Of a stretch of 27,730 nt of DNA, positions 4,281 to 25,162 are shown piece after piece. Both the position numbers and the translations under genes were made by a program. How positions within the stretch are numbered: position 1 is the stretch's first letter; every line of letters begins with the position of its first letter. The DNA is taken from NCBI GenBank assembly GCA_964590575.1, contig CAZPWM010000036.1:1-27730 (forward strand). The letters run 5' to 3'. This DNA is from an uncultured archaeon. Its GTDB lineage: Archaea; Asgardarchaeota; Thorarchaeia; Thorarchaeales; Thorarchaeaceae. The notes under the pieces are model-generated. The model was not told the origin of the DNA. It made no database searches and saw only the letters and a program-made list of their open reading frames with translations.

Positions 4281-4287
4281 ATACCGC

Positions 4288-5526: not shown

Positions 5527-5527
5527 T

Positions 5528-8709: not shown

Positions 8710-8958
8710 TTGCCTAACTATGACCTTGGTACATTAGTAGTCGACAGCCATGACGTGAAAAAACTCACACAAGCCCTTGACATTCCTGATCACCGTTTTG
8801 AAGACATTGTAAACCTTGCTAGACAGGCTTGGGAGCATGAGGATACAATCAGTGAGTCGATCGAGTATATTGCTCAGAATGCAAGTGGATCAGAACTGGT
8901 ATTAGCACTCGTATTCTTTGGTCGAATCTGGGAAGACAATCATGAAGATGAAGAATAA
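8710..8958 (+). CDS. Small acidic hypothetical protein (82 aa)
   Basis: Fills the gap between glpA and the kinase; GGTGA SD before TTG; protein-like helical composition; no family recognised. Confidence 0.7.
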   Translation: MPNYDLGTLVVDSHDVKKLTQALDIPDHRFEDIVNLARQAWEHEDTISESIEYIAQNASGSELVLALVFFGRIWEDNHEDEE

Positions 8959-8960
8959 TT

Positions 8961-10418
8961 CTATGATATTGCTTCTAGTATATTTCCAATCTCTGAGTTC
9001 ATGAGTTTGTTAAAAATCGGAAATTGTTTCTTGTATACTTCTACGTTTTCAGGAATAGGCTCTCGCCGTTCCTCGATATGAAACATGTTGTCAACAGCCT
9101 CAGAATAGCCCCCATAAATTCCAGTTCCGATGGTACCAAGAATGGCTGCACCAATTACAGTGGAGTCTCGAACTTTGGGTAGAACAATAGGTCTGTTAAT
9201 GCAGTCAGCCTGTATCTGGCGCCATAATGGAGAGTTTGCTCCACCACCGCTGATACGGAGCTCATTGAACTCAATATCAAGCATCCCTTCCATCATTTCA
9301 AGGTACATAGAAATGATATACCCATTGGCCTCGAGGATCGCTCTCGCAACATGAGCCTTCGTATGCCCGAAACCTAAATGGTAGAATATTCCCAAATTGT
9401 ATGCCATGAATGGGAACATCACAAGACCGTCGCTACCAGCAGGCACTGATGCTGCCGAGGATTCGATGATCTGGTAGACATCTTTCTCAGTCTGAGCTGC
9501 AAGAGCCATCTCCGGTTCGCAGTATTGGTCTCTATACCACTTATAGGTGAGTCCAGTTCCAGGGGTAACTCCTTCAAGAATCCACTTTCCCGGCATTGCT
9601 GATGGATTGCAATACATCACATATGGCTCTTCCATGAATTCATCGAGATGAGTTATTACGAAGGTACCAGTGCCTGTTGTGGCTTTTACTATACCAGATT
9701 CAATGACCCCCATACCCAAGGCGGAGCACTGTTGATCTCCACTTCCCAGAATAACCGGGGTCCCTCTTCTCAGAGATGTGGCTTTCGAAGCCTCAGAATT
9801 AATCTCGCCTATGGTGGAACCTGAGTTCTTGATTTCAGCCAGTTTGTCAATTGGTATTCCGGTGGCTTCACATAGATCTTCAGACCACTGAAGTGTTTCA
9901 TGGTCAATCGGACCAAACCTGGCATCAGCAGGTGAACTAACCATAGCGCCACAGAGCCGGTTGTTGATGAAAGCATCAAGCTGCAGCCATTTCCATGTCT
10001 TCTTGAAGAAATCGGGGCGATTCTCAATGAACCACATTAGTTTTCTGACGCTACCTCGTGGACCAATCTCAGCAGCCATCTCTTTGCTTTTTACAGTTGA
10101 TCGGTTATCTATCCAAGTTACAGTAGGAGCCAAAGCATTACCATCCCTATCTATAGGAGTCATTGAGTCTCTGGTCGTTGAAACAACAACACCAACGATA
10201 GCATCTGGTCCATGCTTGCAACCAGCAAGGGCTCTCTGCATTGTGTTCGCTGACGTGCGCCAAAATGTGTCTGCTACCTGTTCATGTATCTTTACATCCT
10301 GTGGTTTGGGAGGATATTCCTCATAGGCTTTACTGACCTCACGCCCTTCTTCATCCACAATAACAGAACGTGTTCCTGTTGTTCCAATATCAAATATCGC
10401 AAAGAGACGGTCACTCAT
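8961..10418 (-). CDS. FGGY-family carbohydrate kinase (glycerol kinase/xylulokinase/YgcE-like)
   Basis: 'FDIGTTGTR', 'STTRDS', 'WIDNRS', 'GSGDQQCSALGMG', 'TGTGTF', 'ARAILEA', 'ISGGGANSPLWRQIQAD'. Start ATG 10418 (MSDRLFAIFD) preferred over 10457. Confidence 0.9.
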   Translation of the reverse strand: MSDRLFAIFDIGTTGTRSVIVDEEGREVSKAYEEYPPKPQDVKIHEQVADTFWRTSANTMQRALAGCKHGPDAIVGVVVSTTRDSMTPIDRDGNALAPTVTWIDNRSTVKSKEMAAEIGPRGSVRKLMWFIENRPDFFKKTWKWLQLDAFINNRLCGAMVSSPADARFGPIDHETLQWSEDLCEATGIPIDKLAEIKNSGSTIGEINSEASKATSLRRGTPVILGSGDQQCSALGMGVIESGIVKATTGTGTFVITHLDEFMEEPYVMYCNPSAMPGKWILEGVTPGTGLTYKWYRDQYCEPEMALAAQTEKDVYQIIESSAASVPAGSDGLVMFPFMAYNLGIFYHLGFGHTKAHVARAILEANGYIISMYLEMMEGMLDIEFNELRISGGGANSPLWRQIQADCINRPIVLPKVRDSTVIGAAILGTIGTGIYGGYSEAVDNMFHIEERREPIPENVEVYKKQFPIFNKLMNSEIGNILEAIS

Positions 10419-10509
10419 AGGTATCACTATCAATATTAGAATTGTACAGAGGGGCATATAGATTGTCCTACCATGAGAGTTATCTTGTGTTTTGGTAACC
10501 GGATAGATA

Positions 10510-11446: not shown

Positions 11447-12232
11447 TCACCTGTGTTTGAATTCAGGTTTGCGTTTCTCAAGGAAAGCTGCTACACCTTC
11501 TTCCTTATCATCTGTGTCAAAGGTCTGGCAAAATGCGTCAAGCTCGAAAGCTAGGTGTTCGTCGAGTGTGAGTTGCCAAGCGTTCTGGGTAGACTGTTTT
11601 GCCAAATCGAGAGCGACTCCCGGCATTTGGGATAGCTTCGCAGCAAGTTCCAAAACTCCCTCTCTGAGTTCGTCCTGGGAATTGAAGACTTTGTTCACAA
11701 GACCAATTCTGAAGGCTTCCTCAGCATCCACCCGACCGCCAGTTAGAATGAGTTCTTTTGCAATTCCTAGTCCAACAAGCCTAGCAAGTCTTACAGTTCC
11801 TCCATTTCCAGGGATTGTACCAAGATTTATCTCTGGAAGACCGAATTGTGCGTTGCTAGATGCATAACGTATATCGCATGCTAGTGCTAACTCACAACCT
11901 CCACCAAGTGCATATCCATTGATAGCTGCAATAATCGGCTTGGTCATCGATGTCATGTACTCAGCAATATCTCGACTGGGATCAACAACAGAGTGGATAG
12001 TTTTTGAGTCGCGTCCCACAAAATCAGTGATATCACTTCCAGATATGAAAGCCTTTTCACCAGCGCCAGTGATGACGATTACGCGGATAGAAGGATCTTC
12101 CTCAGCCCGTTTGAGCATGTCAAGTAGTATTTCTTTCACTTTAAGGTTGAACGCATTATATTTCTCAATACGGTTTATTGTGATTGTAGCTATCGCATCC
12201 TCTACATCAAAGAGAACCGAATCTTCTGTCAT
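11447..12232 (-). CDS. Enoyl-CoA hydratase (crotonase family), paralogue 1
   Basis: 'AFISGSDI', 'AAINGYALGGGCELALACD', 'FGLPEINLG' (both catalytic Glu), 'EGVAAFLEKRKP'. ATG 12232 preferred because ORF-track start 12289 overlaps the HAD gene. Confidence 0.92.
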   Translation of the reverse strand: MTEDSVLFDVEDAIATITINRIEKYNAFNLKVKEILLDMLKRAEEDPSIRVIVITGAGEKAFISGSDITDFVGRDSKTIHSVVDPSRDIAEYMTSMTKPIIAAINGYALGGGCELALACDIRYASSNAQFGLPEINLGTIPGNGGTVRLARLVGLGIAKELILTGGRVDAEEAFRIGLVNKVFNSQDELREGVLELAAKLSQMPGVALDLAKQSTQNAWQLTLDEHLAFELDAFCQTFDTDDKEEGVAAFLEKRKPEFKHR

Positions 12233-12251
12233 GGTAGTTTCACATCCACTG

Positions 12252-13379
12252 TCACTGAAGCGTTTTGGGAAGGCTATAGCAATCTCCAAATTCTTGCTGA
12301 AGTTTTTTCAACTCCTCTCTAACCACATCGAGGCCAAGCCGTTCAATAGTTTCAAAGGGCCCTTCCTTATAGTTAGAACCCAGTTTCATGGCCTTGTCAA
12401 TATCCTCCTTTGATGCAATCCCGGTCTCGAATTCAATCATAGCCTCTCTCAGATAGGGCATGATGATTCTGTTGACCAACCAATCTGGATCTGCACCTTT
12501 TGGTTCTTCAAGCGACCGTTTCTGGCCATCTTCATAAGCATAGAAACCCTTGCCAGCTTTCCTACCAATTCTTCCTTCCTCTACATACTTCTTGAGTATT
12601 TCAGGAACTTTGTAACAATCTCCCAATTCTCTCTCAAGAGTACTCCCGGTGCCAAGTGATACATCCAAACCAACAAAGTCAGTCAGTTCCAATGATCCCA
12701 TTGGTGTACCGAACTTCTCTTTCATGGCTGTGTCAATCTCTTCAGCACTTGCTAAGCCTTGTTCATTGATCTGTAATACTGCTCTCGAAATCTGCGCACG
12801 GAGCCTGTTTACAATGAATCCTGGGCTGTCTATTGCCTTCACGGTAATCTTTCTTTGCTTCTCACCAACTTCTAAAGCAGTCTGAATAGTATCGTTGTTT
12901 GTTTCTTTTCCTATGATAACCTCTAGAAGCTTCATAGCAGGTACTGGAGAGAAGTAGTGCATCCCAATTACCTTGGCCGGTCGATTTGTGACCTTTCCAA
13001 GCTCGGTTATACTAAGAGAAGATGTGTTGGAGGCAAGGATCGTGTGAGGCTTTGCAGCATGGTCCATCTCTTTGAACAGTTTCTTCTTGACCTCCATATT
13101 CTCGAAGACAGCCTCTATGACCAAATCTACATCGCTGACTGCTTCACTCAGATATGTTGTAGTCGCTAGCCGACTGATGATATTCTCACCATCTTCAGGT
13201 GATAACTTCCCTCGTTTGACTCCTGATTCCACATAATTCTTAACCCTTGACAAACCTCGATTAATCGCGTTTTCATCCAAATCTGTCATTATCACATCAT
13301 ATCCGGAGGCTCGTGAAACATATGAGATTCCAGCCCCCATTAGACCGGCACCAACAACGGCTATCTTGTTGACCTTCAT
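12252..13379 (-). CDS. 3-hydroxyacyl-CoA dehydrogenase with duplicated C-terminal domain, paralogue 1
   Basis: 'GAGLMGAGI', 'IEAVFE', 'ASNTSSL', 'GMHYFSPVPAMKLLE' (His-Glu), 'PGFIVNR', 'GRKAGKGFY', second HAD_C repeat 'LVNRII...IDKAMKLG...GPF'. ATG 13379 overlaps upstream TGA. Confidence 0.92.
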   Translation of the reverse strand: MKVNKIAVVGAGLMGAGISYVSRASGYDVIMTDLDENAINRGLSRVKNYVESGVKRGKLSPEDGENIISRLATTTYLSEAVSDVDLVIEAVFENMEVKKKLFKEMDHAAKPHTILASNTSSLSITELGKVTNRPAKVIGMHYFSPVPAMKLLEVIIGKETNNDTIQTALEVGEKQRKITVKAIDSPGFIVNRLRAQISRAVLQINEQGLASAEEIDTAMKEKFGTPMGSLELTDFVGLDVSLGTGSTLERELGDCYKVPEILKKYVEEGRIGRKAGKGFYAYEDGQKRSLEEPKGADPDWLVNRIIMPYLREAMIEFETGIASKEDIDKAMKLGSNYKEGPFETIERLGLDVVREELKKLQQEFGDCYSLPKTLQ

Positions 13380-14152
13380 TTCTTTAACTCCTTTTTTCTG
13401 AAAGCTAATCTCTCGTATTGTTTCCCCCAACGCTCATCATACAATAATCCCTCAAGTGGTGGTCGACTGGGTCCTAGGTGTCTTGATTTCATTGGAATTC
13501 CGATGCAAAATGCTGTCAATGGAGTCCATATCGGTGGAATTCCAATCCTATCACGAATTAACTGAGTGTGTCGTGAGTCTGAGCATATCAGAGCCTCGTA
13601 GCCGCAGCCATAACCCATTGCTGTTGCGACCATCCACATATTCTGGATAGCCATGCCTGCAACAACAGAACCGAAAAGTTCGTTGGGATACAATTTTGTG
13701 GCATCATGCCATGCAGGACACGCGCACACAATAATAACAGTGTCACTCTTCTCCGGGTAGCGAAAGAGGTCTCCTTCTCGAAGTCGAGAAAATACAGCGG
13801 CTCGAAACTCATCCTCTATGTACCAATTTCTACCACTTGTGAGCTCGAAAGGAGCTGATCCAAAAACTGTCTGCGCGTTTTCCTGTGCGATATCTGCTAG
13901 GTATTCCTTTGTATCTTGATCATCTCGAATCACGGTTAATCGAATCATCAACATGTTTTCTGGACTTGGTGCATGTCGCGCAGCCTCTAATATCAATTCA
14001 ATATGTTCATCAGGGATCCTTCCACCAGTAAATTCACGGATAGAGCGTCGAGACCTAATATGCTTCATAACCTGTAAACCTGAAGCAATCTTTGTGTCTT
14101 CTACCTCTCTGCCGCTAACATCCAAACTTCCTTTGGTATCTGTTGTCATCAT
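13376..14152 (-). CDS. Nitroreductase-family flavoprotein, paralogue 1
   Basis: FMN-binding 'IRSRRSIREF', 'ILEAARHAPS..N', 'MAIQNMWMVATAMGYG'. Confidence 0.88.
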   Translation of the reverse strand: MMTTDTKGSLDVSGREVEDTKIASGLQVMKHIRSRRSIREFTGGRIPDEHIELILEAARHAPSPENMLMIRLTVIRDDQDTKEYLADIAQENAQTVFGSAPFELTSGRNWYIEDEFRAAVFSRLREGDLFRYPEKSDTVIIVCACPAWHDATKLYPNELFGSVVAGMAIQNMWMVATAMGYGCGYEALICSDSRHTQLIRDRIGIPPIWTPLTAFCIGIPMKSRHLGPSRPPLEGLLYDERWGKQYERLAFRKKELKK

Positions 14153-14227
14153 ATCACCTCAAGATAGTTTCTTGAAATACTTCAACAGCAATTCCTATGG
14201 GTCTGTATTTGAACCTGAATCGGTTTC

Positions 14228-15013
14228 CTATTTGTGTTTGAATTCTGCTTTGCGCTTCTCAAGGAAAGCCGCTACACCTTCTTCTTTATCCTCAGTATCG
14301 AAGGTTTGACAAAACGAATCAAGCTCAAATGCAAGATTATCAGTAAGAGTCTGCTGCCAAGCATTATTCAGTGATTGTTTTGCCAGTTTGAGTGCCACAC
14401 CAGGTTTTCCAACCAACTTGGTTGCGAGTTCCTTCGTACCTTCATGGAGAGCTTCAATTGACTCAAACACTCTGTTTACTAGACCAATACGTAATGCTTC
14501 ATCTGCCTTGATCTGATCTCCGGTGTATACAAGCTCTTTGGCCATTCCGAGACCGACAAGTCGTGGGAGTCTAACTGTACCACCGTATCCTGGAATGATA
14601 CCTAGAAGGATCTCAGGTTGACCAAATCTTGCATTTGCAGAAGCATACCGAATGTCGCAGGCCATGGCAAGCTCACAGCCCCCTCCCAGTGCGAAACCGT
14701 TTATTGCGGCAATCACTGGTTTACTCATCGACTCAATATATACACTGAGTTCTTGTCCTTGCAGCGCAGCTGGACGTACTTCTTTTGAGTTCACACCCGG
14801 GAACCCTGTGATATCAGCTCCTGCAGCAAATGCTTTCTCTCCAGCACCGGTCAAGATAACAACCCTCACCGCATCATCCTTCTCAGCTTTCTTGAAGAAA
14901 TCACTCATAGCTGCTCTCACTGTCGTGTTCAATGCATTATATTTTTCAGGTCGATTAATCGTGATGGTAGCAATTCCATCAGCCACTTCGTAGAGAACTT
15001 CTTGTTCAGACAC
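14228..15013 (-). CDS. Enoyl-CoA hydratase (crotonase family), paralogue 2
   Basis: 'AFAAGADI', 'GGGCELAMACD', 'FGQPEILLGIIPGYGGT.RL.RLVG'; GGAGG SD before GTG. Confidence 0.93.
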   Translation of the reverse strand: MSEQEVLYEVADGIATITINRPEKYNALNTTVRAAMSDFFKKAEKDDAVRVVILTGAGEKAFAAGADITGFPGVNSKEVRPAALQGQELSVYIESMSKPVIAAINGFALGGGCELAMACDIRYASANARFGQPEILLGIIPGYGGTVRLPRLVGLGMAKELVYTGDQIKADEALRIGLVNRVFESIEALHEGTKELATKLVGKPGVALKLAKQSLNNAWQQTLTDNLAFELDSFCQTFDTEDKEEGVAAFLEKRKAEFKHK

Positions 15014-15056
15014 ATCTCTTCCTCCTGACTATTGCTCGCTCAGGGGCAGTTGTGAG

Positions 15057-15069
15057 TAATAAGCCTTCG
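15057..15069 (-). promoter_or_regulatory. Putative archaeal BRE/TATA promoter of the ECH-nitroreductase-HAD-ECH operon
   Basis: Minus strand reads CGAAGGCTTATTA about 45 nt upstream of GTG 15013: purine-rich BRE-like segment followed by TTATTA. Confidence 0.45.
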
Positions 15070-15147
15070 CGCGTATGACACAGGGCTCACTTAATGTTTA
15101 ATTACTTGTTTGCAACAATGTAACAAGTACCACCCGGAGATGGTGCA

Positions 15148-15495
15148 ATGGTTAGCTCGGAAAAGAGAGATGTATGGAGTGAGAGTCTCAGCAAAATGAA
15201 GGCATCTCTTGAAAGCACATATGATTTCAAGACAATAGTCCAAGAAGAGAAACGACTTCTTGACGGCTTGAAAGATGACGCCAGAGATTATGTGGTCTTC
15301 TCGAGCTACAGAAGGAACGCGGGAAAACGTAGACTCAATGATATCAAGAATGTGATCGATGCTGCTCTTGAGAAGTTAGATTGCTGTGATTCGTATGAAG
15401 CATCCAGAATCTACCTTGAAACTCTGAAAACTGTAACGATGCAAACTCGTTGGGCGTCAGTATTAGAAACGCTTTCAGAATATACCCACTCATGA
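15148..15495 (+). CDS. Hypothetical helical protein (115 aa)
   Basis: Intact ATG-TGA ORF with GGAGATGGTG upstream, in an otherwise empty gap; no family recognised. Confidence 0.75.
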   Translation: MVSSEKRDVWSESLSKMKASLESTYDFKTIVQEEKRLLDGLKDDARDYVVFSSYRRNAGKRRLNDIKNVIDAALEKLDCCDSYEASRIYLETLKTVTMQTRWASVLETLSEYTHS

Positions 15496-15581
15496 AATGA
15501 TTGGATAGCATTCTATGTCACTAAACTATCATTCATATTGCGATTCCATTTGGATGTGCTAAATCAAACAGGTGATTTATC

Positions 15582-15791
15582 ATCCCAACGATACTGGACG
15601 AGAACTGCTGCGATAGCTGCGGAACATGTGTGAAAACCTGCAGGTACGGAGTTTATGAGATAGTTGACGAGAAACCGCAAGTGGCTCATGTTCAGTATTG
15701 CAAGGACTGCGGAAATTGCATTGAAGAGTGTCCTAATAGGTGTATAACTTTTCGTAGCAGCGCTCAGAAAAATAAAGCTGAAAATAAATAG
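15582..15791 (+). CDS. 2[4Fe-4S] ferredoxin (~69 aa), apparent non-canonical ATC start; absent from ORF track
   Basis: Manual translation: (I/M)PTILDENCCDSCGTCVKTCRYGVYEIVDEKPQVAHVQYCKDCGNCIEECPNRCITFRSSAQKNKAENK*, with two CxxCxxCxxxC motifs; SD AGGTGA at 15570-15575. Confidence 0.85.
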   Translation: MPTILDENCCDSCGTCVKTCRYGVYEIVDEKPQVAHVQYCKDCGNCIEECPNRCITFRSSAQKNKAENK

Positions 15792-15817
15792 AAAGGGGAG
15801 CCCGAAGGCTCAACCTT
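15775..15817 (-). terminator. Hairpin with cUUCGg tetraloop followed by U-rich tract (thiolase-DUF35 transcript)
   Basis: Minus strand GAGCC-TTCG-GGCTC (15798-15811), extendable by AAGG/CCTT, then TTTCTATTTATTTT. Confidence 0.6.
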
Positions 15818-15819
15818 AA

Positions 15820-16233
15820 CTATACTAGCCACTTGTATGTAGTCATTTTATCTTGGTTTTCAAAAGCAAGTTTGAGAGGCATACCAACTGTTGGTGGACC
15901 CATTGGATTTGTTATATGGGCAGTTAACCGTAGGCCTGATGGGAACTCTCCAATGGCAACAATATATGGCTGCTTTGCTGACAGACTTGCTGGAGCAAAG
16001 TCTACAATGACATAAGAGTAGAGTTTTGCTTCACGTTCGGTGAATTCTGTAAGTTCACAATCACTCATGTCTTTCTGGCAGTGCTGTCTGGGAGGTAGAT
16101 ATTCAGCTCCACACTTTGTACACTTGCTCTTCATGAGCTTTCCCTGTTCAAGTGCCTCCAAAAACTTCTGGAAGAAGGGTGTCACAGCCTTGTCAGTGGA
16201 GTAACCAAGATAGATCTCTTTATGTTCTGCCAT
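15820..16233 (-). CDS. DUF35 Zn-ribbon/OB-fold thiolase partner protein
   Basis: 'FLEALEQGKL...KCTKCG..YLPPRQHC..D', OB-fold 'LYSYVIV..AP...PYIVAIGEF..GLRLTAHI....VGM'; directly downstream of the thiolase. Confidence 0.9.
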   Translation of the reverse strand: MAEHKEIYLGYSTDKAVTPFFQKFLEALEQGKLMKSKCTKCGAEYLPPRQHCQKDMSDCELTEFTEREAKLYSYVIVDFAPASLSAKQPYIVAIGEFPSGLRLTAHITNPMGPPTVGMPLKLAFENQDKMTTYKWLV

Positions 16234-16236
16234 TCT

Positions 16237-17403
16237 TTACCAACCCCTCTCAAAGATGAACACGTTGACGAACTGACCGGATTGCCCGACATTGTGTGCA
16301 AGACCATATTTGACATCCTTAATTTGTCGGGACTTATACTCGGACTCTCCTCTCATCTGTTTCATAATCTCGTAAGTCATTGAAAGACCAGTCGCACCAA
16401 GTGGATGACCTTTGCTCTTAAGACCACCATCGCAGTTCACAGGAATTCGACCATCGTGATAGACTTCTTTGTTTTCTATGAGTTCTCGACCTTTTCCTGG
16501 TTCTGCAAAACCTATGTCTTCATATGCAACCATCTCAGCTATACTGAAACAGTCGTGTACTTCAGCCATGTTCATATCATCAGGTTTGAGCCCAGCCATA
16601 TTAAAAGCAGCTTTTGCAGCGCGTTTTGCACCAGGTATTGACGTAAGTGATTCTCTATCTTGAATCATCATTGCTGAAGCTCCTGCACCAATGCCTCTAA
16701 TCCACATTGGTCTATCTGTGAATTCTTTTACGCGATCTTCAGCTGCAATTACAACCCCTGCTGCACCATCTGTAATAAGACTGCAATCATAGAGATTTAG
16801 TGGCCTACATATTGGTACAGCGTTATTGGCTTCCTCCAGAGAAACCTCTCTTGGAAGATGCGCCTTAGGATTTTGTGCACCATAATGATGAGATTTTACA
16901 GAAATCATTGAAAGAACTTCATGAGGAAGATTATACTCATGCATATACCTTGATGCCATGAGAGCATAGAACGCGGGGAAACTGATTCCGTATGGATATT
17001 CCCATCGCATGTCCCCAGCCTGCGACATATATTCAGTTGCAACTGCTGATGAAACCCTGTTCATTTGCTCAACTCCAAGAACCAACATAACATCATAAAG
17101 TCCTGCCGCCACCATTCCCCACGCTGCTCTTAGACTTGCAGTACCTGTAGTACACGCTGATTCAACTCTTAGGTGAGGTTTGTTTTGAAGTCCTAGATAG
17201 TCTGCAATTAGAGCTGAACCAGCTCCTTGACCTGTGAATTGTGACGCGGCGTATGAGAGAACTGATGCCTCAATTTTGTCTTGCGTTAATCCGTCATCAT
17301 AGATTGGTTTGTACGCTTCTGCACAGAGCTCTCGCATTGTTGCATCGTAACGTTTTCCGAATTTGCTGTGTCCCGCTGCGACAACAGCAACTTTTCTTGC
17401 CAT
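16237..17403 (-). CDS. Thiolase (acetyl-CoA C-acyltransferase), archaeal SCP2-type
   Basis: 'RVESACTTG' (catalytic Cys), 'DCSLITDGAA', 'AEVHDCF', 'GGLKSKGHPLGATG', 'LAHNVG'. Confidence 0.93.
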   Translation of the reverse strand: MARKVAVVAAGHSKFGKRYDATMRELCAEAYKPIYDDGLTQDKIEASVLSYAASQFTGQGAGSALIADYLGLQNKPHLRVESACTTGTASLRAAWGMVAAGLYDVMLVLGVEQMNRVSSAVATEYMSQAGDMRWEYPYGISFPAFYALMASRYMHEYNLPHEVLSMISVKSHHYGAQNPKAHLPREVSLEEANNAVPICRPLNLYDCSLITDGAAGVVIAAEDRVKEFTDRPMWIRGIGAGASAMMIQDRESLTSIPGAKRAAKAAFNMAGLKPDDMNMAEVHDCFSIAEMVAYEDIGFAEPGKGRELIENKEVYHDGRIPVNCDGGLKSKGHPLGATGLSMTYEIMKQMRGESEYKSRQIKDVKYGLAHNVGQSGQFVNVFIFERGW

Positions 17404-17514
17404 TTCATTTCCTCCATGGAGAGAGCCAGTCCTGTGGGTCCAGCAATTGGCTCATATCATTTACAGTATGAAACTTCTCCTATAACACCTAGTCTTAAGG
17501 TTGACGATTAACCA

Positions 17515-17552
17515 TAAAAAGAGAAGAAAGACCCCGCAGAGTCCGGGGTCTT
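17515..17552 (-). terminator. Hairpin plus U-rich tract after crotonase paralogue 3
   Basis: AAGACCCCG-N7-CGGGGTCTT (17528-17552), followed on the minus strand by TTCTTCTCTTTTT. Confidence 0.65.
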
Positions 17553-17563
17553 GAAAAAATCAA

Positions 17564-18376
17564 CTATTCTCCAGTAAACTTACCACGTCGCTTCTCAAAG
17601 ACTGAAGAGATTCCCTCACCGAGATCCTTAGTGTTGAAACACTCCATTCCAGCCTCAGTTTGAAATGCAAAGTTACCCTTGTAGTCTTGTTCAAAAGCCA
17701 TGTGTGTTGCTTGTTTGGCTAGTTTCAGAGCAACTGGTGCATTGCCGCCCAATTTTGCTCCATACCACATTGCCTGACTCAGCAACTCGTCCTTGCTGAC
17801 AACCTTACTTACAAGGCCCATATCAAGAGCCTCTTGAGCTGTGACCTGACCACCAGTTAGAATTATTTCCATTGCTTTCCCAAGCCCAACAATTCTTGGA
17901 AGTCTTACACATCCACCCCAAGCAGGAATAAGACCCAAACTGACTTCAGGTGTTCCGATTTTTGCTTCAGTTTCGCAAATTCGGATGTCACACGCGAGAG
18001 CAATTTCAGTTCCACCTCCAAGACAGAGGCCATTGATAGCAGCTATCACAGGTTTTGTCGATTTTGCAATGGCATCCACTGCCTGCTGACCATCCTCTAG
18101 GAGAGGTTTGACTTCAGCGGGTTTGCCGAGGAACCCTTGTGCTGTCTTAAGGTCTGCACCAGTACAGTAGACTTTTTCATGTGCAGAAGCAATAACAATT
18201 GACCTGATCTCAGGGTCATTTTCAGCCTCTTGTAGAGCAGCAGTGAGGTCATTTAGAAATTGATCGTTAATACTGTTCAAAGAATCAAGGCGATTCATCT
18301 TGATAACGGCTACATTCTTTGCAGGCGAAAGGAAAGAGCCCTCTTTTGAGTATAGCATTGTTTCGTATTCTGGCAT
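17564..18376 (-). CDS. Enoyl-CoA hydratase (crotonase family), paralogue 3
   Basis: 'YCTGADL', 'GGGTEIALACD', 'IGTPEVSLGLIPAWGG'. AGGTGG SD favours ATG 18376 (ORF track GTG 18385). Confidence 0.9.
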   Translation of the reverse strand: MPEYETMLYSKEGSFLSPAKNVAVIKMNRLDSLNSINDQFLNDLTAALQEAENDPEIRSIVIASAHEKVYCTGADLKTAQGFLGKPAEVKPLLEDGQQAVDAIAKSTKPVIAAINGLCLGGGTEIALACDIRICETEAKIGTPEVSLGLIPAWGGCVRLPRIVGLGKAMEIILTGGQVTAQEALDMGLVSKVVSKDELLSQAMWYGAKLGGNAPVALKLAKQATHMAFEQDYKGNFAFQTEAGMECFNTKDLGEGISSVFEKRRGKFTGE

Positions 18377-18423
18377 TTTTTCCACCTTTTCGGAAACTTT
18401 ACTATTTCGGAGGTAGTGACCGA

Positions 18424-18437
18424 CTTATAAACCCCAT
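18424..18437 (-). promoter_or_regulatory. Putative TATA box for crotonase paralogue 3
   Basis: Minus strand ATGGGGTTTATAAG about 50 nt upstream of the start, just after the upstream terminator hairpin. Confidence 0.45.
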
Positions 18438-18477
18438 TTATCCTGTCTAGAGAATGACCAACCTTCGATAACAATTC

Positions 18478-18513
18478 ATAAAATAAGAAATAGGCAGGGA
18501 TTACTACCCTGCC
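18478..18513 (-). terminator. Hairpin plus U-rich tract after HAD paralogue 2
   Basis: GGCAGGG-N7-CCCTGCC (18493-18513), followed on the minus strand by TATTTCTTATTTT. Confidence 0.6.
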
Positions 18514-18521
18514 AGTGTACT

Positions 18522-19649
18522 CTAATCTAGATACTTTGGTACGGAGTAACAGTCCCCTAATTCTTCATGCAGTTTCTTGATGAAATCACGAACTTTTTCA
18601 ACACCAAATTGGTCGAGCATTTCGAATGGACCCATTGGCCAGCTTGCACCGAGCTTCATAGCCATGTTGATGTCTTCTACAGACGCAATACCGTCATCCA
18701 CAAGAAGCATTGCCTCTCGTATAGCGGGAATGTTGATACGCTCTACAATCCAATTCGCATCTGCACCTTTTGGAGCTTCGGGCTCGACTTCCTCAGCGCC
18801 ATAGGAGTAAAAGCCCTTCTTGGACTTCATGCCTATATCACCAGCATCCACGAGGTTCTTGAGGGTTTCAGGAGGTTTGAAGCAATCTCCAATTTCCCTA
18901 TAGAGCGTTGACATAGCATTGAATGTAATATCCAAACCAACAAAGTCACCCAGTGTGAAGGGTCCTGCGGGAGCCTTGCCAACACTGGTCATTGCTAAGT
19001 CAATCTCTTCCTTTGTCGCTTCACCACGCTCCAGCATTAGAAGTGCTTCGCGCATTGCAGGCATAAGAAGACGATTGACAATGAAACCAGGACTGTTCTT
19101 GGCAATCACTGTTTTCTTGTTTTGAGTCTTACCAACAGATTCAGCTGCTGTAATGGTTTCATCACTTGTCTTAACTCCAATGACAAGCTCTAAGAGCTTC
19201 ATTGCCGGGACTGGTGAGAAATAGTGCATCCCGATGAATTTGTCGGGTCTCTTTGTAGAATCTGCTAATTCATCAATGCTTAAAGATGAGGTGTTTGTTG
19301 CCAGGATACAATGAGCTGGTGCGGCAGCATCTAGCTTGGCAAAGACTTCCTTCTTGATATCCATATTCTCAAAGATAGCCTCAATGACTAAGTCAGCGTC
19401 TTTGACAGCCTCTTCAAGATTAACTGTAGCTTTTAGTCTACTCATCAGACCTTCAGCATCATTCATGGAGATTTTTCCTTTGTCTATGCCAGTCATAACA
19501 TCAGTACGAATACGCTCCATACCTGCGTCAACGAACTCCTGCTTAGTGTCAACAACGGTCACGTTGAACCCATTCCATGCTGAAACATAGGCAATACCCG
19601 CGCCCATTAATCCAGCGCCGATAACTGCAATCTTATTGACCACATTCAT
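18522..19649 (-). CDS. 3-hydroxyacyl-CoA dehydrogenase with duplicated C-terminal domain, paralogue 2
   Basis: 'GAGLMGAGIA', 'ATNTSSL', 'GMHYFSPVPAMKLLE', 'PGFIVNRLL', 'GMKSKKGFY', second HAD_C repeat '...AMKLGASWPMGPFE'. Confidence 0.93.
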   Translation of the reverse strand: MNVVNKIAVIGAGLMGAGIAYVSAWNGFNVTVVDTKQEFVDAGMERIRTDVMTGIDKGKISMNDAEGLMSRLKATVNLEEAVKDADLVIEAIFENMDIKKEVFAKLDAAAPAHCILATNTSSLSIDELADSTKRPDKFIGMHYFSPVPAMKLLELVIGVKTSDETITAAESVGKTQNKKTVIAKNSPGFIVNRLLMPAMREALLMLERGEATKEEIDLAMTSVGKAPAGPFTLGDFVGLDITFNAMSTLYREIGDCFKPPETLKNLVDAGDIGMKSKKGFYSYGAEEVEPEAPKGADANWIVERINIPAIREAMLLVDDGIASVEDINMAMKLGASWPMGPFEMLDQFGVEKVRDFIKKLHEELGDCYSVPKYLD

Positions 19650-19655
19650 GACCTC

Positions 19656-20015
19656 CTACATTGCGCCCATCATTACTTGGAGAATTAGATTTGCTAGGGG
19701 ATCACTTTCATTAGCGTTCCCAATTACAACAAGATCTCCTTTCTTCATAGTGTCCTTGAATGGAACTTCACCAGTGAAGATTCCAAGTAACGTTTTAGCA
19801 TTTGATTTGTAGATGACATCAGGACTGGGATAGATTCCATCGAATAGCTCAATCTTGTCCTTTGTCACCACCATGTAACTGTCACCTTCCTCGGTGTGAA
19901 CCTGAAGGATTTTACCATGGTATGGACCAACCCAAGCCGCGAGCTGTTGTTTGAGGTCATCCTTGCTGTTGCATTGTGTCATAAGGAATTTGAAAAATTC
20001 TTGTAGTTGTGACAT
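19656..20015 (-). CDS. SCP2 sterol/lipid-binding domain protein
   Basis: SCP2-like C-terminal pattern 'G.YPSPDVIYKSNAKTLLGIFTGEV...TMKKGDLVVIGN'; size 119 aa; lipid-metabolism context. Confidence 0.75.
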   Translation of the reverse strand: MSQLQEFFKFLMTQCNSKDDLKQQLAAWVGPYHGKILQVHTEEGDSYMVVTKDKIELFDGIYPSPDVIYKSNAKTLLGIFTGEVPFKDTMKKGDLVVIGNANESDPLANLILQVMMGAM

Positions 20016-20019
20016 TGTT

Positions 20020-20547
20020 TCAGTCCTCCTTAATTATCCAGTCGTCCACAGCCTCTTGCATGGCAGCGTCAACAGAACTAGCCCAGAAATTACCTTTTTT
20101 CGATTTCACTTTATCGAGAAAGTTATCATATTTGTCCCCATCCATGAGCACTACAATGCGCCCCTTTCGGTCGTTGATGAAGGATTGATGAATCATCTTC
20201 TTAGAGGTCCAATATTCAGCCTCGATATCACCAACTTTCAGTCGCGGGTAAAAAGGCCATGATCCACTTGGATGAGGTCTGAAAGATTTGCCTCCAGACT
20301 TCCACTTCTTCACTTTATCGCCCTCGGCTTCCTTAAATCCGGGTCGGAAAGGCCATTGTGGTACATAACGAAAGCCCTTTTCGCCATCAACTACACCGCC
20401 TGACCAACGACCAGTATACACACGTCCACCCGTGTTGTCACAGAACTGCTCCATAACAACTTCGATGAAGCCTTCAGGAGTAAGACCAGCTTCTTCGGCC
20501 ATCTTCTTCATGTTCTCAAAAGTTTCGCCTTCAAAATTGACGTCCAT
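20020..20547 (-). CDS. Hypothetical protein (175 aa) with possible RHH-like segments at both termini
   Basis: Tightly coupled in the operon (1 nt from upstream stop, GGAGG SD); RHH-like beta-helix-helix patterns judged by eye only. Confidence 0.75.
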   Translation of the reverse strand: MDVNFEGETFENMKKMAEEAGLTPEGFIEVVMEQFCDNTGGRVYTGRWSGGVVDGEKGFRYVPQWPFRPGFKEAEGDKVKKWKSGGKSFRPHPSGSWPFYPRLKVGDIEAEYWTSKKMIHQSFINDRKGRIVVLMDGDKYDNFLDKVKSKKGNFWASSVDAAMQEAVDDWIIKED

Positions 20548-20548
20548 A

Positions 20549-21310
20549 TCACTTACCCTCCTTCCTGAATGCTAGCCTTGTGTATGGCTTGCCCCAACGT
20601 TCCTCATACATGAGCCCTTCGAGAGGGGCTCTGCTGGGACCTAACGCTCTTGGGGATACACGTTTGCCAATACAAAACGCTGTCAGCGGTTCCCAGATTG
20701 GTGGAATTCCAAATCGGTCTCTGATGAGTTGAGCATGTCGAGGATCTGAAGCGACAAGAGCTTCATATCCGCAACCATATCCAAGTTCAGTGGCTACCAG
20801 CCACATATTCATTATTGCCATTCCACAAACTACAGATCCGAATAGTGAATTGGGGTAAAGATATCCAGCATCATGCCAAGCTTCACTTGCACAAACAATA
20901 ATCGCAGTGTCACTTTTCTCAGGATATCTGAATAGCTCTCCATCCCTCAGTCGGGCATAAACTGCCGCTCTGTAAGGATCAGTGATAAACCAGTTTCTTC
21001 CACTTGTAAGTTCAAATGGAGCTCCTCCAAAAGCCGTCTGAGCCATTTCCTGAGCTATATCCGCCAGGAATTCCTTACTCTCTTGATCATCGCGTATGAC
21101 AACAAAACGCATCATTAACATATTCTCAGGACTCGGCGCATGTCGTGCCGATTCCAATATCAACTCGATGTGTTCATCGGGTATTTTTTCGCCAGTGAAT
21201 TCTCTGATAGAGCGTCTTTCTCGAATCCATTTCAGGGATTCAAGCTCTTGTGTTGTTTTCACTCCATCTTCAGATTCACCAGCAGCTTTACTCTCTGCAT
21301 CTGAAGCCAT
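20549..21310 (-). CDS. Nitroreductase-family flavoprotein, paralogue 2
   Basis: 'IRERRSIREF', 'LESARHAPSPEN', 'MAIMNMWLVATELGYG'; colinear with and highly similar to 13376-14152. Confidence 0.88.
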   Translation of the reverse strand: MASDAESKAAGESEDGVKTTQELESLKWIRERRSIREFTGEKIPDEHIELILESARHAPSPENMLMMRFVVIRDDQESKEFLADIAQEMAQTAFGGAPFELTSGRNWFITDPYRAAVYARLRDGELFRYPEKSDTAIIVCASEAWHDAGYLYPNSLFGSVVCGMAIMNMWLVATELGYGCGYEALVASDPRHAQLIRDRFGIPPIWEPLTAFCIGKRVSPRALGPSRAPLEGLMYEERWGKPYTRLAFRKEGK

Positions 21311-21613
21311 TTATATACCTCAACTTATTGTTGAACGACCTTCGTAGTTATCAGCCTGCATAAATGTATTCCGAGAGGCTGAAATAGAACAAAAATGAAG
21401 CTCTAGAAGCTATATTCTGTAATATCGTATCAATACCATAACAAACGATACCCTGAGCAGTTCTCCATCATACTCTGATTAATGACCCAGTATTGGCAGC
21501 ACTATACAAGCTGACTTATGATTCATCCTCAATTCAGTCTCTGAGCGCATATTGCTCCTCCCGGCGTATATGCGTTCCTTTCTTTTATGAATCGGGAGCT
21601 GGCATGCTCCCTC

Positions 21614-22693
21614 CTAATGCTTCTTAGTCTGCTTTAGGATTGCATCCAAATCAAGAACTTCGCTCACAATATTCTCTACAATTGCTAGCTTTTCTTTGTT
21701 ATCTACAGTGACTGTCCCAATCAATCCATCCACAATATGGCCGGTCCCATATGTGTCATGTGCTGTAACCATAATTGGAACACCTCGTTCACGGGCACGA
21801 GCGACAGTACCAACATCAGGACCCAGTCCACCTGTAAGAATAAGCAAGTTGGTGTCTGTTTCTAGAGCTGTGAGACAAATATCAGTTCTATCCCCGCTAG
21901 TAATGACAGCTTTATCACGTACGCGTCGAAACCACCTGAGTGCATTTTCTGGAGCCATGCTTCCAACCATGAATTGATCTATGAGTAGATCCATCTTGTC
22001 AGTGTCACCAATAATCTCACCATCAAGAGCTCTTTGAATTTCTCGGACTGTAGGACTGAATAACTCGCTATTTAGATAAATAACGCCAACTAAACCTATA
22101 GACCGCCCTTCTAGAAACGGACCTATTTGTTCTATGACAGTTTTCTTGAGCATTGGTGGAACCATATTAAGAACAATCTTTACATTTTCGATTCCCTGTG
22201 TTCTGAAGAGCTCAATCTGGAGAAGGATATCATCAATCGCAGTGATATCGGGAAAGTTGACCAGACATATCACTGTTGCATTGAGTTCCTTGGCTATCTG
22301 TGGTGTTGAGAGGTCCACGTGCATAAGATGCCAGGATGCCTTTGTTCCTTCAACAATCATGTAGTCTAATCCTTCTGAGACCTTTGAGTAGCTTTCTTTA
22401 ATCAGTTTCAACAGTTCATCATGACCAATGAGAATCAGTTCATCATAGCTTGAGTTTGTTCGAACAATAGGACAGAGACATGAAAGAGGGTGGTCCAGTC
22501 CGAGAAGCTCTTTCATAATAGCTGCATCTTCATCGATGTCCTCTGAATTTGTACTATAATCATAACTCTTGGATCCTACAGGTTTGAAGTACCCGACAGA
22601 TTTGCCCTTCTCCTTAAGCTTGGCTGCAAGACCGATAGCAACCATAGTCTTTCCAGTAAGTGTGTCTCCACTTATTACAATATTTTCTACCAT
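21614..22693 (-). CDS. Phosphotransacetylase N-terminal-like protein (BioD-like P-loop + DRTGG domain), no Pta catalytic domain
   Basis: Walker A-like 'GDTLTGKT', 'VGYFKPVG', 'IVEGT', DRTGG signature 'VGSM...ITSGDRTDI...LILTGG'. SD GGAGGGTGA before ATG 22693. Confidence 0.85.
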   Translation of the reverse strand: MVENIVISGDTLTGKTMVAIGLAAKLKEKGKSVGYFKPVGSKSYDYSTNSEDIDEDAAIMKELLGLDHPLSCLCPIVRTNSSYDELILIGHDELLKLIKESYSKVSEGLDYMIVEGTKASWHLMHVDLSTPQIAKELNATVICLVNFPDITAIDDILLQIELFRTQGIENVKIVLNMVPPMLKKTVIEQIGPFLEGRSIGLVGVIYLNSELFSPTVREIQRALDGEIIGDTDKMDLLIDQFMVGSMAPENALRWFRRVRDKAVITSGDRTDICLTALETDTNLLILTGGLGPDVGTVARARERGVPIMVTAHDTYGTGHIVDGLIGTVTVDNKEKLAIVENIVSEVLDLDAILKQTKKH

Positions 22694-22697
22694 TTTA

Positions 22698-24851
22698 TCA
22701 CCCTCCAATAGTTATCTTAACATCAACTGCTGATACGCCTTTTCCTTTTTCATAAGCAAAAGCAGGATTGATATCAAGTTCAACTATATCCTCAAAATCA
22801 GTGACTAGTTGACCTATTCTAAGAATTGTATCTTCAATAGCAACAATATCGCTAGGAGCCTCGCCTCGTACGCCTTTCAAAAGAGCGCCCATTTTTGTTT
22901 CCATGACTAACTCAGTAGCGTCACTACGGCTCATGGGGGCAAGTCTAAATGATATGTCTTTGAGATAATTAACAAATATCCCGCCAGCTCCGAACATCAC
23001 GAGTGGACCAAACTGCACATCTCTAGAACAACCAATGATCAGTTCTTTCCCCTTCTCAGCCATCTCTTGTACATCAACCCCGTAGATAATTGCTCTCGGC
23101 ATGTGAGTTTTCGCATTCTCCAAAATCTGAAGGAATGCCGCTTCAACTTGCTCAGGTGTTTCCAGTCCGACACGAATTCCCCCAATGTCACTTTTATGAA
23201 TGATGTCAGGGCTGGCTATCTTTAGAACAACGGGATATCCAAGCTCTTCCGCAAGAATCTTAGCTTCCTCAGAACTGGTAGCTAATCTAATCCTTGCAAC
23301 AGGAATACCATAAGCCTCAGCGATCGCGTGAGCCTCGCTTCCAAGTAAGACACTCCGGTTATCTTTTCGAACGCTTTCGAAAATTTCCGCAACCCTCTTT
23401 TTGTCTACTTTAAAGATAGGTATAGATCTATCCTTCAAGCTGTCTCGGTTTACCGTGTAATGATAAAGCTCTGCAATTGCATGAACCGCACGCTCTGGAA
23501 AATCAAAGACAGGAATTCGGCCCTCCGTTAACACAATTCGGGGGTATACCATTGAGTTGCCACCCATGAAAACTGCAATCAATGGTTTATCGGGGTACTT
23601 TTTATGGGATTCAACTAAAATCTGTGCCGTTTCTGTTTCCTGAGTCATTGCCTGCGGAGTAAGAAGTACAAGAACTGAGTCTACGTTCTCATCGCGCAGC
23701 GAAGCCTCGACGCATAATGCGTAATCTTCAGGTTGTGCGGTTCCAAGAGCGTCAATGGGATTGTAAACAGAAGCAGCTGGAGGCAGATTCTCTTTCAGAT
23801 ATGCTATAGTTTCTGAGGTCAATTGGGCAATCTGTAGCCCGCTAGCTTCACAAGCATCAGTCGTAAGAATTCCTGGGCCTCCGGCATTTGTTACTATCGC
23901 TACTCGGTTTCCAGAGGGGAGATACATATCATCAAAGACTGCGGCAATATCGAAGAGAGAAGCCATGTTGTTGGCACGCCTTACTCCACATTGCTTGAAT
24001 GCAACATCATAAGCTGTATCGCTTCCTGCTAAAGATCCTGTATGAGAAGATGCAGCCCGCGCTCCAGCTGCACTTACTCCAGACTTCACAACAAAGATTG
24101 GCTTGGTTGGAACAACTTTGCGACAGGCCTCCATGAATTTACGACCATCAACAACAGATTCGATATAGAGCAGGATAAATGTAGAATCGGGGTCTCTGCC
24201 AAAAGCCTCAATAAAATCAGCCTCGTCCAAATGTGCCTTATTGCCCAAACTAACGAATTTCGAGAATCCAATCTTTTCCATTAAACTCCAGTCGAGAATT
24301 CCAGTCATCAGGGCACCAGACTGAGACGCGAATGCAATCTTACCCTTTCCAGGAGTCCCTGCAGAAAACGATGCATTGTATGGAGCACTTGTGTTAATTA
24401 TACCTAGACAGTTTGGGCCTTGTACAACCATTTCATATTTTTCCGCAAGCTCAACGAGCTTCTTCTCGGCTTCTTGGCCTTCGTGTCCTATTTCTTTGAA
24501 ACCAGCAGTTATGATGACAAGTGCCTTTACGCCTTTTTTGCCACATTCTTCAACAGTAAGTAATACGTATTTTGCTGGAATAACGATGATTGCAACATCC
24601 ACTTCATTTGGGATATCAGAAACAGAGCGATGTGTTTTCAAACCAAGTATTTTGCCACCACGTGGATTCACTGGATAGATTCTGCCTTCAAAACCGCTTT
24701 CAATCAGATTCCGAAGAACATCGTTACCCAGTTTACCCTTTGTTTCGGAGGCGCCAATCACTGCAATTGAACGCGGATTGAATAGTTCATCAATACCTTT
24801 CTGACGATCCACTTTGTACACGACCCAAGATTGGTCTGAGTCGGTCGTCAA
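22698..24851 (-). CDS. acd: ADP-forming acetate/acyl-CoA ligase (ACD), fused alpha-beta
   Basis: CoA-binding 'PRSIAVIGAS', 'YPVNP', 'GPNCLG', 'SQSGA', phospho-His 'ASSHTGSLAG', 'TNAGG', 'NPID'; ATP-grasp beta domain 'GYPVVLKIASPDIIHKSDIGG', 'ELDINP'. True start may be GTG 24821 or 24812 because a TATA-like CTTATAA lies just upstream of 24851. Confidence 0.93.
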   Translation of the reverse strand: MTTDSDQSWVVYKVDRQKGIDELFNPRSIAVIGASETKGKLGNDVLRNLIESGFEGRIYPVNPRGGKILGLKTHRSVSDIPNEVDVAIIVIPAKYVLLTVEECGKKGVKALVIITAGFKEIGHEGQEAEKKLVELAEKYEMVVQGPNCLGIINTSAPYNASFSAGTPGKGKIAFASQSGALMTGILDWSLMEKIGFSKFVSLGNKAHLDEADFIEAFGRDPDSTFILLYIESVVDGRKFMEACRKVVPTKPIFVVKSGVSAAGARAASSHTGSLAGSDTAYDVAFKQCGVRRANNMASLFDIAAVFDDMYLPSGNRVAIVTNAGGPGILTTDACEASGLQIAQLTSETIAYLKENLPPAASVYNPIDALGTAQPEDYALCVEASLRDENVDSVLVLLTPQAMTQETETAQILVESHKKYPDKPLIAVFMGGNSMVYPRIVLTEGRIPVFDFPERAVHAIAELYHYTVNRDSLKDRSIPIFKVDKKRVAEIFESVRKDNRSVLLGSEAHAIAEAYGIPVARIRLATSSEEAKILAEELGYPVVLKIASPDIIHKSDIGGIRVGLETPEQVEAAFLQILENAKTHMPRAIIYGVDVQEMAEKGKELIIGCSRDVQFGPLVMFGAGGIFVNYLKDISFRLAPMSRSDATELVMETKMGALLKGVRGEAPSDIVAIEDTILRIGQLVTDFEDIVELDINPAFAYEKGKGVSAVDVKITIGG

Positions 24852-25156: not shown

Positions 25157-25162
25157 TTCTAT

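Follow-up and report, generated by a model that had tools for sequence, protein, structure and literature searches.

A conserved four-part gene cassette built around a nitroreductase-fold flavoprotein (NTR) accompanies beta-oxidation genes in at least the Thorarchaeota, a second Asgard family and a Bathyarchaeia-like clade. Its linkage to the genes for 3-hydroxyacyl-CoA dehydrogenase (HAD), enoyl-CoA hydratase (ECH) and thiolase goes far beyond chance; the same order recurs in 39 Thorarchaeota loci and in 80 metagenome loci with about 55% identity in NTR. We followed up the cassette from a stretch of 27,730 nucleotides (the window), positions 1 to 27,730 of contig CAZPWM010000036.1 (C36) of an uncultured archaeon of the Thorarchaeaceae (GCA_964590575.1), a metagenome-assembled genome (MAG) of 3.40 Mb that is 91% complete and has Candidatus Thorarchaeota MAGs as its nearest public relatives. 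The conserved unit consists of NTR, two small proteins (fused into one, HYP, in the window) and an SCP2-like protein. We tentatively propose that NTR is a flavin mononucleotide (FMN) enzyme that would carry out alpha,beta C-C/C=C redox chemistry on acyl-CoA or enoyl-CoA held by the SCP2-like protein; arguing by analogy with flavoproteins of the same fold, we give this reading a probability of roughly 0.35.

The open reading frames (ORFs) of the window were assigned by Pfam profile search, and the NCBIfam equivalog profiles were also applied. Between 11447 and 21310 every gene lies on the minus strand, and the region encodes two NTR (PF00881), three crotonase-type ECH, two HAD, a thiolase of the archaeal type together with the DUF35 protein that partners it, an SCP2-like protein and an unassigned protein of 175 aa. 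This is the inventory that an initial annotation, made from the sequence letters, had drawn up, and Pfam confirms it down to the missing enzymes: no match to an acyl-CoA dehydrogenase (ACAD) or an electron transfer flavoprotein (ETF) was obtained among the ORFs of this region or of the whole window. The genes of the region and the two just upstream of it are as follows.

11447-12289, minus strand: ECH1, enoyl-CoA hydratase (ECH_1, 231 bits; 64% identity to ECH2)
12252-13379, minus strand: HAD1, 3-hydroxyacyl-CoA dehydrogenase (Pfam; start ATG at 13379)
13376-14152, minus strand: NTR-A, second NTR paralogue, 258 aa (P0001; PF00881, 78.3 bits), without small proteins or SCP2 of its own
14228-15013, minus strand: ECH2, enoyl-CoA hydratase (ECH_1, 247 bits)
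15820-16233, minus strand: DUF35 protein (OB_ChsH2_C and zinc ribbon; Pfam), thiolase partner
16237-17403, minus strand: archaeal-type thiolase (Thiolase_C_1 and Thiolase_N; NF004720, 448.7 bits versus a cut-off of 420)
17564-18385, minus strand: ECH3, crotonase-type enoyl-CoA hydratase (ECH_1, 213.5 bits)
18522-19649, minus strand: HAD2, 3-hydroxyacyl-CoA dehydrogenase, 375 aa (3HCDH_N, 211.9 bits, and two 3HCDH stretches)
19656-20015, minus strand: SCP2-like small protein, 119 aa, last cassette gene (PF02036, 21.3 bits, at the cut-off)
20020-20547, minus strand: HYP, 175-aa fusion of small proteins A and B (no Pfam or NCBIfam match)
20549-21310, minus strand: NTR-B, nitroreductase-fold flavoprotein, 253 aa, first cassette gene (P0002; PF00881, 85.8 bits)
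21614-22708, minus strand: DRTGG/AAA_26 protein resembling the Pta N-terminus, upstream of NTR-B (Pfam, NCBIfam)
22698-24851, minus strand: ADP-forming acyl-CoA synthetase (ACD), paired with the DRTGG gene upstream of NTR-B (Pfam, NCBIfam)

The genes for NTR-B, HYP, the SCP2-like protein and HAD2 follow one another with intergenic gaps of 1-6 bases and NTR-B heads the series, in agreement with the operon read from the letters. The overlap between an NTR gene and a HAD start codon is equally real: the NTR-A stop TGA (13378-13376) and the HAD1 ATG (13379-13377) are merged into ATGA, with GGAG upstream. Two of the three HAD genes of the genome and three of its four ECH genes are carried by the window.

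Three sets of loci were compared: 39 Thorarchaeota genome loci found by tblastn with the window proteins; 80 metagenome loci, in which NTR is 70-91% identical to a Bathyarchaeia-named protein and about 55% identical to the window NTR; and 15 loci from other Asgard families. The Thorarchaeota order reads ACD-DRTGG-NTRB-HYP-SCP2-HAD2-ECH3-THL-DUF35-(small opposite-strand ORF)-ECH2-NTRA-HAD1-ECH1, where THL is the thiolase, and the metagenome loci again present NTR, HYP and SCP2, followed in many of them by HAD-ECH-THL-DUF35. HYP and SCP2 come after NTR in 31 of the 32 Thorarchaeota loci and in all 50 metagenome loci that have at least 1.7 kb downstream, the sole Thorarchaeota locus without them being probably an NTR-A-type locus (L044). 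Where the sequence extends at least 3 kb downstream, a HAD gene is found within 2.5 kb in 26/27 Thorarchaeota and 24/32 metagenome loci; where it extends at least 6 kb, 22/23 and 21/22 loci, respectively, have at least one of HAD, ECH and THL within 6 kb. L040 and L112 are the exceptions named in the locus counts. In 24 of the 39 Thorarchaeota loci NTR-B is also preceded by the ACD and DRTGG pair, and acyl-CoA synthetases, ADP- or AMP-forming, flank the cassette in several lineages. In the other Asgard families an SCP2-like gene follows NTR in 15/15 loci, most of them with matches to the small proteins; the full order NTR-HYP-SCP2-HAD-ECH-THL-DUF35 is present in another Asgard family (L143), and in eight of the 15 loci a CoA-ester gene (ACD, AMP-ligases, thiolase/DUF35, ACAD or the full set) lies no more than about 8 kb away. 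NTR homologues are thus linked to HAD, ECH and thiolase genes in a conserved order across two archaeal phyla. The initial annotation, which had paired NTR with HAD, was right about this linkage and missed the unit that is actually conserved, namely NTR with two small proteins and an SCP2-like protein.

That the linkage survived a duplication, as also claimed there, is borne out by a maximum likelihood tree of 34 HADs. In it, the HADs linked to the cassette group together (100/99), apart from the third HAD of the genome, on C1, and the HAD1 type, whose gene neighbours NTR-A, branches on a long stem from within the Thorarchaeota clade (99/98). This nesting shows that the NTR-HAD pair was duplicated within Thorarchaeota, both copies keeping the linkage. 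Copies of the NTR-A type share about 70-74% identity with NTR-B and were observed in no family but the window's own.

Part of the cluster is also present in RNA libraries. Contigs of four sediment metatranscriptome libraries, 90-100% identical to the window, cover about 15.8-21.3 kb (NTR-B through DUF35), bridge HAD2/SCP2/HYP (19558-20488) and HYP/NTR-B (20240-21309) and, in three runs, end at 21299-21319, beside the NTR-B start codon (21310). Such libraries can contain DNA, and the coverage gives a weak hint of one transcript running from upstream of NTR-B into at least the thiolase/DUF35 genes. Coverage was nil over NTR-A/HAD1/ECH1 and slight over ACD/DRTGG, a gap that carries no interpretation.

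As judged from profile scores and a predicted structure, NTR-A and NTR-B (71% identical over 253 aa) are genuine but divergent members of the nitroreductase superfamily that fall outside its named subfamilies. Their PF00881 scores far exceed the gathering cut-off of 23.5 bits, and they remain below all the NCBIfam equivalog cut-offs (BluB, 57.5 vs 150; NfsA, 50.4 vs 223; FbiB-C, 43.9 vs 249.55; RutE, 24.3 vs 152). Neither protein contains the ACAD domains PF00441, PF02770 or PF02771 according to Pfam. The AlphaFold2 model of NTR-B (pLDDT 78) retrieved the FbiB C-terminal domain first with Foldseek (4xoq/4xom, E about 1e-12, TM 0.56-0.59), with BluB also among the top neighbours, and a VIA structure comparison gave Z values of 17.5-19.9 over 160-200 residues to structures of the superfamily. 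The best NTR matches in a PDB sequence search were two uncharacterised Geobacter proteins (E about 1e-12). The family is narrow: of 1.84 billion representatives searched, those that reach E<=1e-30 amount to 24 clusters. The source names of homologues with 54-61% identity are Bathyarchaeia, Methanofastidiosia and Hodarchaeales. Thorarchaeota and Bathyarchaeia-like copies share 52-59% identity, and 61 columns are invariant among 19 sequences from the two phyla, including many Arg and the motifs RRS.R and APSPEN, which we take to be involved in FMN binding. This narrowness and these invariant columns point to a specific and constrained function, probably not that of a promiscuous reductase. Some of the clusters consist of tandem double-NTR proteins (P0125-P0137, 449-491 aa), the halves of which are related to NTR with E values down to 4e-103.

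The gene labelled hypothetical by the initial annotation has the operon position given to it; it is not a single gene by origin and results from the fusion of two small genes, which are separate ORFs in most lineages and fused as HYP in the window's lineage. Small protein A (about 84 aa) has a ribbon-helix-helix (RHH)-like N-terminus and the motifs GGRxYxGxW and VQWPF; small protein B (about 92 aa) has the motifs YRxxPxGxW, DIxHE and RKGR and an RHH-like C-terminus. Their fusion argues that A and B would act together. HYP matched no Pfam or NCBIfam family, and Pfam searched at E<=10 with seven small-protein sequences returned chance-level matches only. The AlphaFold2 model of HYP is of low confidence (pLDDT 48.5), and its predicted secondary structure is a mixture of strands and helices. 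The SCP2-like protein of the window scores 21.3 bits with PF02036, exactly at the cut-off of 21.3; three orthologues score 25.1, 29.6 and 28.4 bits, and three further ones gave no PF02036 match at E<=1e-4.

How might such a cassette function? Acyl-CoA/enoyl-CoA redox is the only step of the cycle for which the cluster offers no other candidate, and two systems of the same fold, AlbAB and the FbiB C-terminal domain, perform analogous chemistry; for these reasons we favour FMN-dependent redox on acyl- or enoyl-CoA. Together with the adjacent thiolase/DUF35, HAD and crotonase, the cassette would process acyl-CoA esters of short to medium chain length, and a hydride would be transferred between N5 of FMN and the beta-carbon of the CoA thioester, either to reduce enoyl-CoA to acyl-CoA or, in reverse, during alpha,beta-dehydrogenation. 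The acyl chain would be held by the SCP2-like protein, and the NTR active site would be completed or capped by the small proteins, as that of AlbA is by AlbB. SCP2 does accompany a dehydrogenase step in the same genome: its contig C71 (L131:6523-8550) encodes a 675-aa fusion of ACAD, SCP2 and MaoC dehydratase, which physically ties SCP2 to dehydrogenation as well as hydration. Since the hosts are anaerobic archaea, O2 is an unlikely acceptor, and the reductive direction, or an oxidation with another carrier, seems more plausible than an oxidase. The cassette would then be an additional route beside the ACADs, perhaps specific for a chain length or an electron carrier. Gene content, gene order, duplication history, the NTR fold and the occurrence in RNA libraries are established; the substrate, the reaction and its direction, the electron partner and the assembly into a complex are what we infer. 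In its full form, the proposal is that the cassette of Asgard archaea and Bathyarchaeia represents an acyl-CoA dehydrogenase or enoyl-CoA reductase of a new class, built on the nitroreductase fold and not homologous to the known ones, with small subunits completing the site, SCP2 delivering the acyl-CoA and possibly a carrier other than ETF, in the service of beta-oxidation or its reversal; so specified, it is a possibility about which we have real doubts.

The proposal gains some plausibility from comparison with known systems. The C-terminal domain of FbiB uses FMN to reduce a C=C bond conjugated to the carboxyl group of dehydro-F420-0. One source states that it acts on this substrate (PMC8498797), and another that AlbAB catalyses alpha,beta-dehydrogenation next to a carbonyl and needs a small partner, which supplies a catalytic tyrosine, with fused forms in existence (PMC11055893); the superfamily does offer precedents, as invoked by the initial annotation, both for oxidising an alpha,beta C-C bond and for reducing a C=C bond. 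AlbA/AlbB (CDO-A/CDO-B, the cyclodipeptide oxidase, CDO) has an NTR-fold FMN subunit whose active site is completed by a small partner encoded beside it, with fused forms (PMC11055893), and the cassette may resemble it in this. Structure 9exv of a CDO aligns to the NTR-B model with a Z of 17.7, and 8uc3 is matched by sequence (E=4.2e-4). The small genes adjacent to NTR are conserved, and their products are putative partners of NTR. The cassette differs in its SCP2-like protein, which the AlbA/AlbB system is without, and in its context, acyl-CoA genes rather than cyclodipeptide synthases. As for FbiB, its C-terminal domain is the best Foldseek match and NTR hits NCBIfam TIGR03553, although with 41.9-43.9 bits against a cut-off of 249.55; unlike FbiB, NTR is not fused to a CofE domain and has no F420-biosynthesis context. 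CofH (FO synthase) had no match in the 91%-complete genome, three CofE-like genes of the F420-ligase family are present on C88, C99 and C150, and F420 is a conceivable NTR cofactor.

With respect to the classical enzymes, NTR takes the slot in the gene order that bcd-etfBA occupies in clostridia, beside the equivalents of hbd, crt and thiolase, yet it has no homology to ACAD/ETF or Bcd-EtfAB (PF00441, PF02770 and PF02771 are absent). The thiolase/DUF35 core is shared with the fatty acid synthase/beta-oxidation system of Sulfolobus acidocaldarius (KT/DUF35, ACR, MaoC-HCD, MDR enoyl-CoA reductase), from which the cluster differs by an S-type HAD and a crotonase in place of SDR and MaoC, and by a candidate redox enzyme that is NTR-fold instead of MDR. 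The role of KT/DUF35 pairs, in which Asgard genomes are rich, is described in a preprint on archaeal fatty acid synthase (bioRxiv 10.1101/2024.07.05.601840), where 'nitroreductase' and 'SCP2' each occur 0 times. A search of the full-text literature, outside of which lay subscription-only literature and bioRxiv supplements, found no description of the cassette or of an NTR-fold acyl-CoA dehydrogenase or enoyl-CoA reductase. From its genes, the cassette would be an undescribed example of NTR-superfamily oxidoreductases that work with small partners, and its function is a prediction.

Several observations weigh against the proposal, among them the presence of ACADs. The initial annotation had suggested that NTR supplies a redox step missing from the cycle, with the caveat that ACADs may be encoded elsewhere. 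The caveat proved justified and the suggestion is not supported: the genome contains six ACAD genes, on six other contigs, and one EtfAB pair, and NTR is no replacement for an absent ACAD. A complementary distribution of NTR and ACAD was sought across 251 Asgard genomes at least 70% complete and not found: NTR (counted at E<=1e-30) is present in 92 and ACAD in 227 of them, and all scored genomes of the NTR-positive families have ACADs (f1, 60/60; f7, 5/5; f8, 1/1; f12, 19/19; f13, 3/3; f15, 4/4; f18, 1/1; f19, 6/6). Because the genome and the NTR-positive families have ACADs, there is no need for a new dehydrogenase. What stands is the absence of ACAD/ETF at the level of the cluster, where they occur in 0/39 Thorarchaeota and 1/80 metagenome loci (1/119 in total). 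Beta-oxidation operons without an ACAD gene are ordinary in bacteria, as exemplified by E. coli fadBA versus fadE, so this absence alone proves little. In the sole exception (L125:4629-7960), EtfB-EtfA and an ACAD-like gene (25-29% identity to the ACADs of this genome) follow the cassette and HAD on the same strand, and the cassette thus coexists with classical ACAD/ETF genes. Other points are of the same bearing. The loci that we counted are related genomes and not independent events. Seven of the 15 other Asgard loci have no CoA-ester gene within about 8 kb, and in two of these seven, L139 and L147, a UbiA-family prenyltransferase adjoins the cassette. The VIA Z values are alike for NfsA, IYD, BluB, FbiB-C and CDO and do not separate the subfamilies. 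The partner of CDO is the four-helix CDO-B, whereas the cassette has two different small proteins with RHH-like parts and beta-rich motifs; no Pfam family and a mixed strand/helix prediction give no place for them in the CDO-B family. Finally, the RHH likeness of the small proteins, weak as it is, would also fit DNA binding.

These points leave room for other explanations. NTR could be a redox accessory that shuttles electrons between NAD(P)H (from HAD) or ACAD and an acceptor, replacing or supplementing ETF without touching the CoA ester. NAD(P)H:acceptor oxidoreductases are numerous in the NTR superfamily, and NfsA, Frp and NADH oxidase-like entries are among the top VIA matches; the genome has six ACADs for a single EtfAB pair, itself embedded in Hdr-like genes; a third NTR-like gene directly follows an ACAD on contig C35, an arrangement conserved in Thorarchaeota loci; and NTR-A is translationally coupled to the NAD-dependent HAD by the ATGA overlap. 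We nevertheless consider such a shuttle unlikely: it leaves the obligatory SCP2-like binder and the two small proteins unexplained, the narrowness and high conservation of the family set it apart from promiscuous NAD(P)H oxidases, and the top Foldseek neighbours are FbiB-C and BluB, which make no direct use of NAD(P)H. SCP2 domains bind many lipids, and UbiJ and UbiT are SCP2 proteins of quinone synthesis, so the cassette could instead act on an SCP2-carried hydrophobic molecule other than a CoA ester (an isoprenoid, a quinone-like lipid or a derivative of a free fatty acid), its beta-oxidation neighbours reflecting shared lipid metabolism or regulation. The seven Asgard loci devoid of CoA-ester genes and the UbiA gene just downstream in L139 and L147 are what this explanation has in its favour. 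It is distinctly unlikely in our opinion, since the commonest neighbours by far are HAD, ECH, thiolase/DUF35 and acyl-CoA synthetases, the gaps of 1-6 bases and the ATGA overlap tie the NTRs to HAD genes, and L139 and L147 belong to a divergent paralogous branch (L139:9878-10888 and L147:8938-9948; NTR 45-47% identity) in which the cassette lies between a TFIIB gene and the UbiA gene.

A regulatory cassette would read the small proteins as an RHH DNA-binding heterodimer set by the flavin redox state of NTR and/or by the SCP2 lipid and controlling the neighbouring acyl-CoA genes, and PutA is indeed a flavoenzyme with an RHH domain. A strand-helix-helix pattern is predicted at the N-terminus of A and the C-terminus of B, the A-B fusion fits a pseudo-dimer, and the HYP profile finds its best PDB matches in two RHH repressors, CopG (E=0.12) and ORF56 (E=0.31). 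Neither of these matches is significant, however, and in a protein atlas search nothing exceeded 0.88, the nearest named clusters, RHH/Arc-like, reaching 0.85-0.86, below the trusted level. The conserved GGRxYxGxW, VQWPF and DIxHE lie outside the RHH-like parts, regulators between enzyme genes in a fixed order across phyla are unusual, and the 61 invariant columns of NTR are typical of an enzyme; an RHH pair could moreover regulate while NTR is still an enzyme. For a purely regulatory cassette the odds therefore appear long. Last, the source databases annotate the proteins only as 'nitroreductase family protein' or 'FMN reductase', and one might take them for ordinary detoxifying, oxygen-insensitive nitroreductases that sit beside beta-oxidation genes by chance. 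This can hardly be maintained: chance adjacency is contradicted by a gene order conserved in Thorarchaeota, other Asgard families and the Bathyarchaeia-like clade, the genes are translationally coupled, and the scores fall far below the NfsA, RutE, BluB and FbiB cut-offs.

The proposed redox enzyme for acyl- or enoyl-CoA would matter because this redox step is the energetically awkward one of anaerobic fatty-acid oxidation and of reverse beta-oxidation. To our knowledge, the known solutions all rely on ACAD/ETF or on SDR, MDR or TIM-barrel reductases; an NTR-fold enzyme, if confirmed, would be a new enzyme class, and one found in the archaeal lineage closest to eukaryotes, for which it is debated how fatty-acid metabolism and the SCP2-linked beta-oxidation enzymes of peroxisome type arose. 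Should its chemistry prove to be different, the cassette is still widespread, present in RNA libraries, without described function and made of just four genes.

A few further loci of the genome deserve mention. The third NTR-like gene (C35, about 21900-26300; L128:7944-12274) is 27% identical to NTR-A/B and lies directly downstream of an ACAD; it is followed by an unassigned 220-aa ORF (chance-level Pfam matches only at E<=10) and an HMGL-like gene, with a divergent thiolase/DUF35 pair alongside. The pair formed by this NTR and the 220-aa ORF was found in 8/8 genomes of the window's own family and in 6/7 f12 genomes searched, and the ACAD adjoins the NTR in all seven own-family loci that are long enough, L157 being too short. 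The only EtfAB pair (C63, L134:2499-8953) is set in an HdrA/FlpD/HdrC/CCG-like cluster, its EtfA bearing an N-terminal ferredoxin domain, and one ACAD (C50, L129:1050-8933) lies beside HdrA/FlpD-like, FAD-oxidoreductase and CCG genes, a setting of the HdrA/MvhD/CCG type; both clusters are possible Hdr-linked acyl-CoA redox systems. Because the best NCBIfam match of the upstream ACD is 4-hydroxybutyrate-CoA ligase (683 bits vs a cut-off of 1300), we also considered NTR as a substitute for 4-hydroxybutyryl-CoA dehydratase and rejected this as unnecessary: two HpaB/AbfD-like genes are present elsewhere, and no invariant cysteines suited to an Fe-S cluster were seen in the alignments.

Within the window, downstream of the cluster and on the same strand, 1732-10457 (minus) holds genes for glycerol kinase, a GlpA/B/C-like anaerobic glycerol-3-phosphate dehydrogenase, an FAD-linked oxidase, two CCG/Fe-S proteins that accompany this oxidase, and a radical SAM protein; they might be linked to the acyl-CoA cluster, for instance through the breakdown of lipids to glycerol and fatty acids. 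In the gap between DUF35 and ECH2 the opposite strand carries a 115-aa ORF of no known family (15148-15495, plus), a possible regulator, which is kept at that place with 36-80% identity in 27/39 Thorarchaeota loci, that is in every locus reaching its position except L032, L040 and L046. On the other side, two adjoining ORFs of 319 and 338 aa (25378-27405, plus), which match no Pfam or NCBIfam family, are divergent from the ACD gene; in the Thorarchaeota loci the 338-aa ORF is present upstream of the cassette in 28/39 (35-84% identity) and the 319-aa ORF in 27/39 (26-89%).

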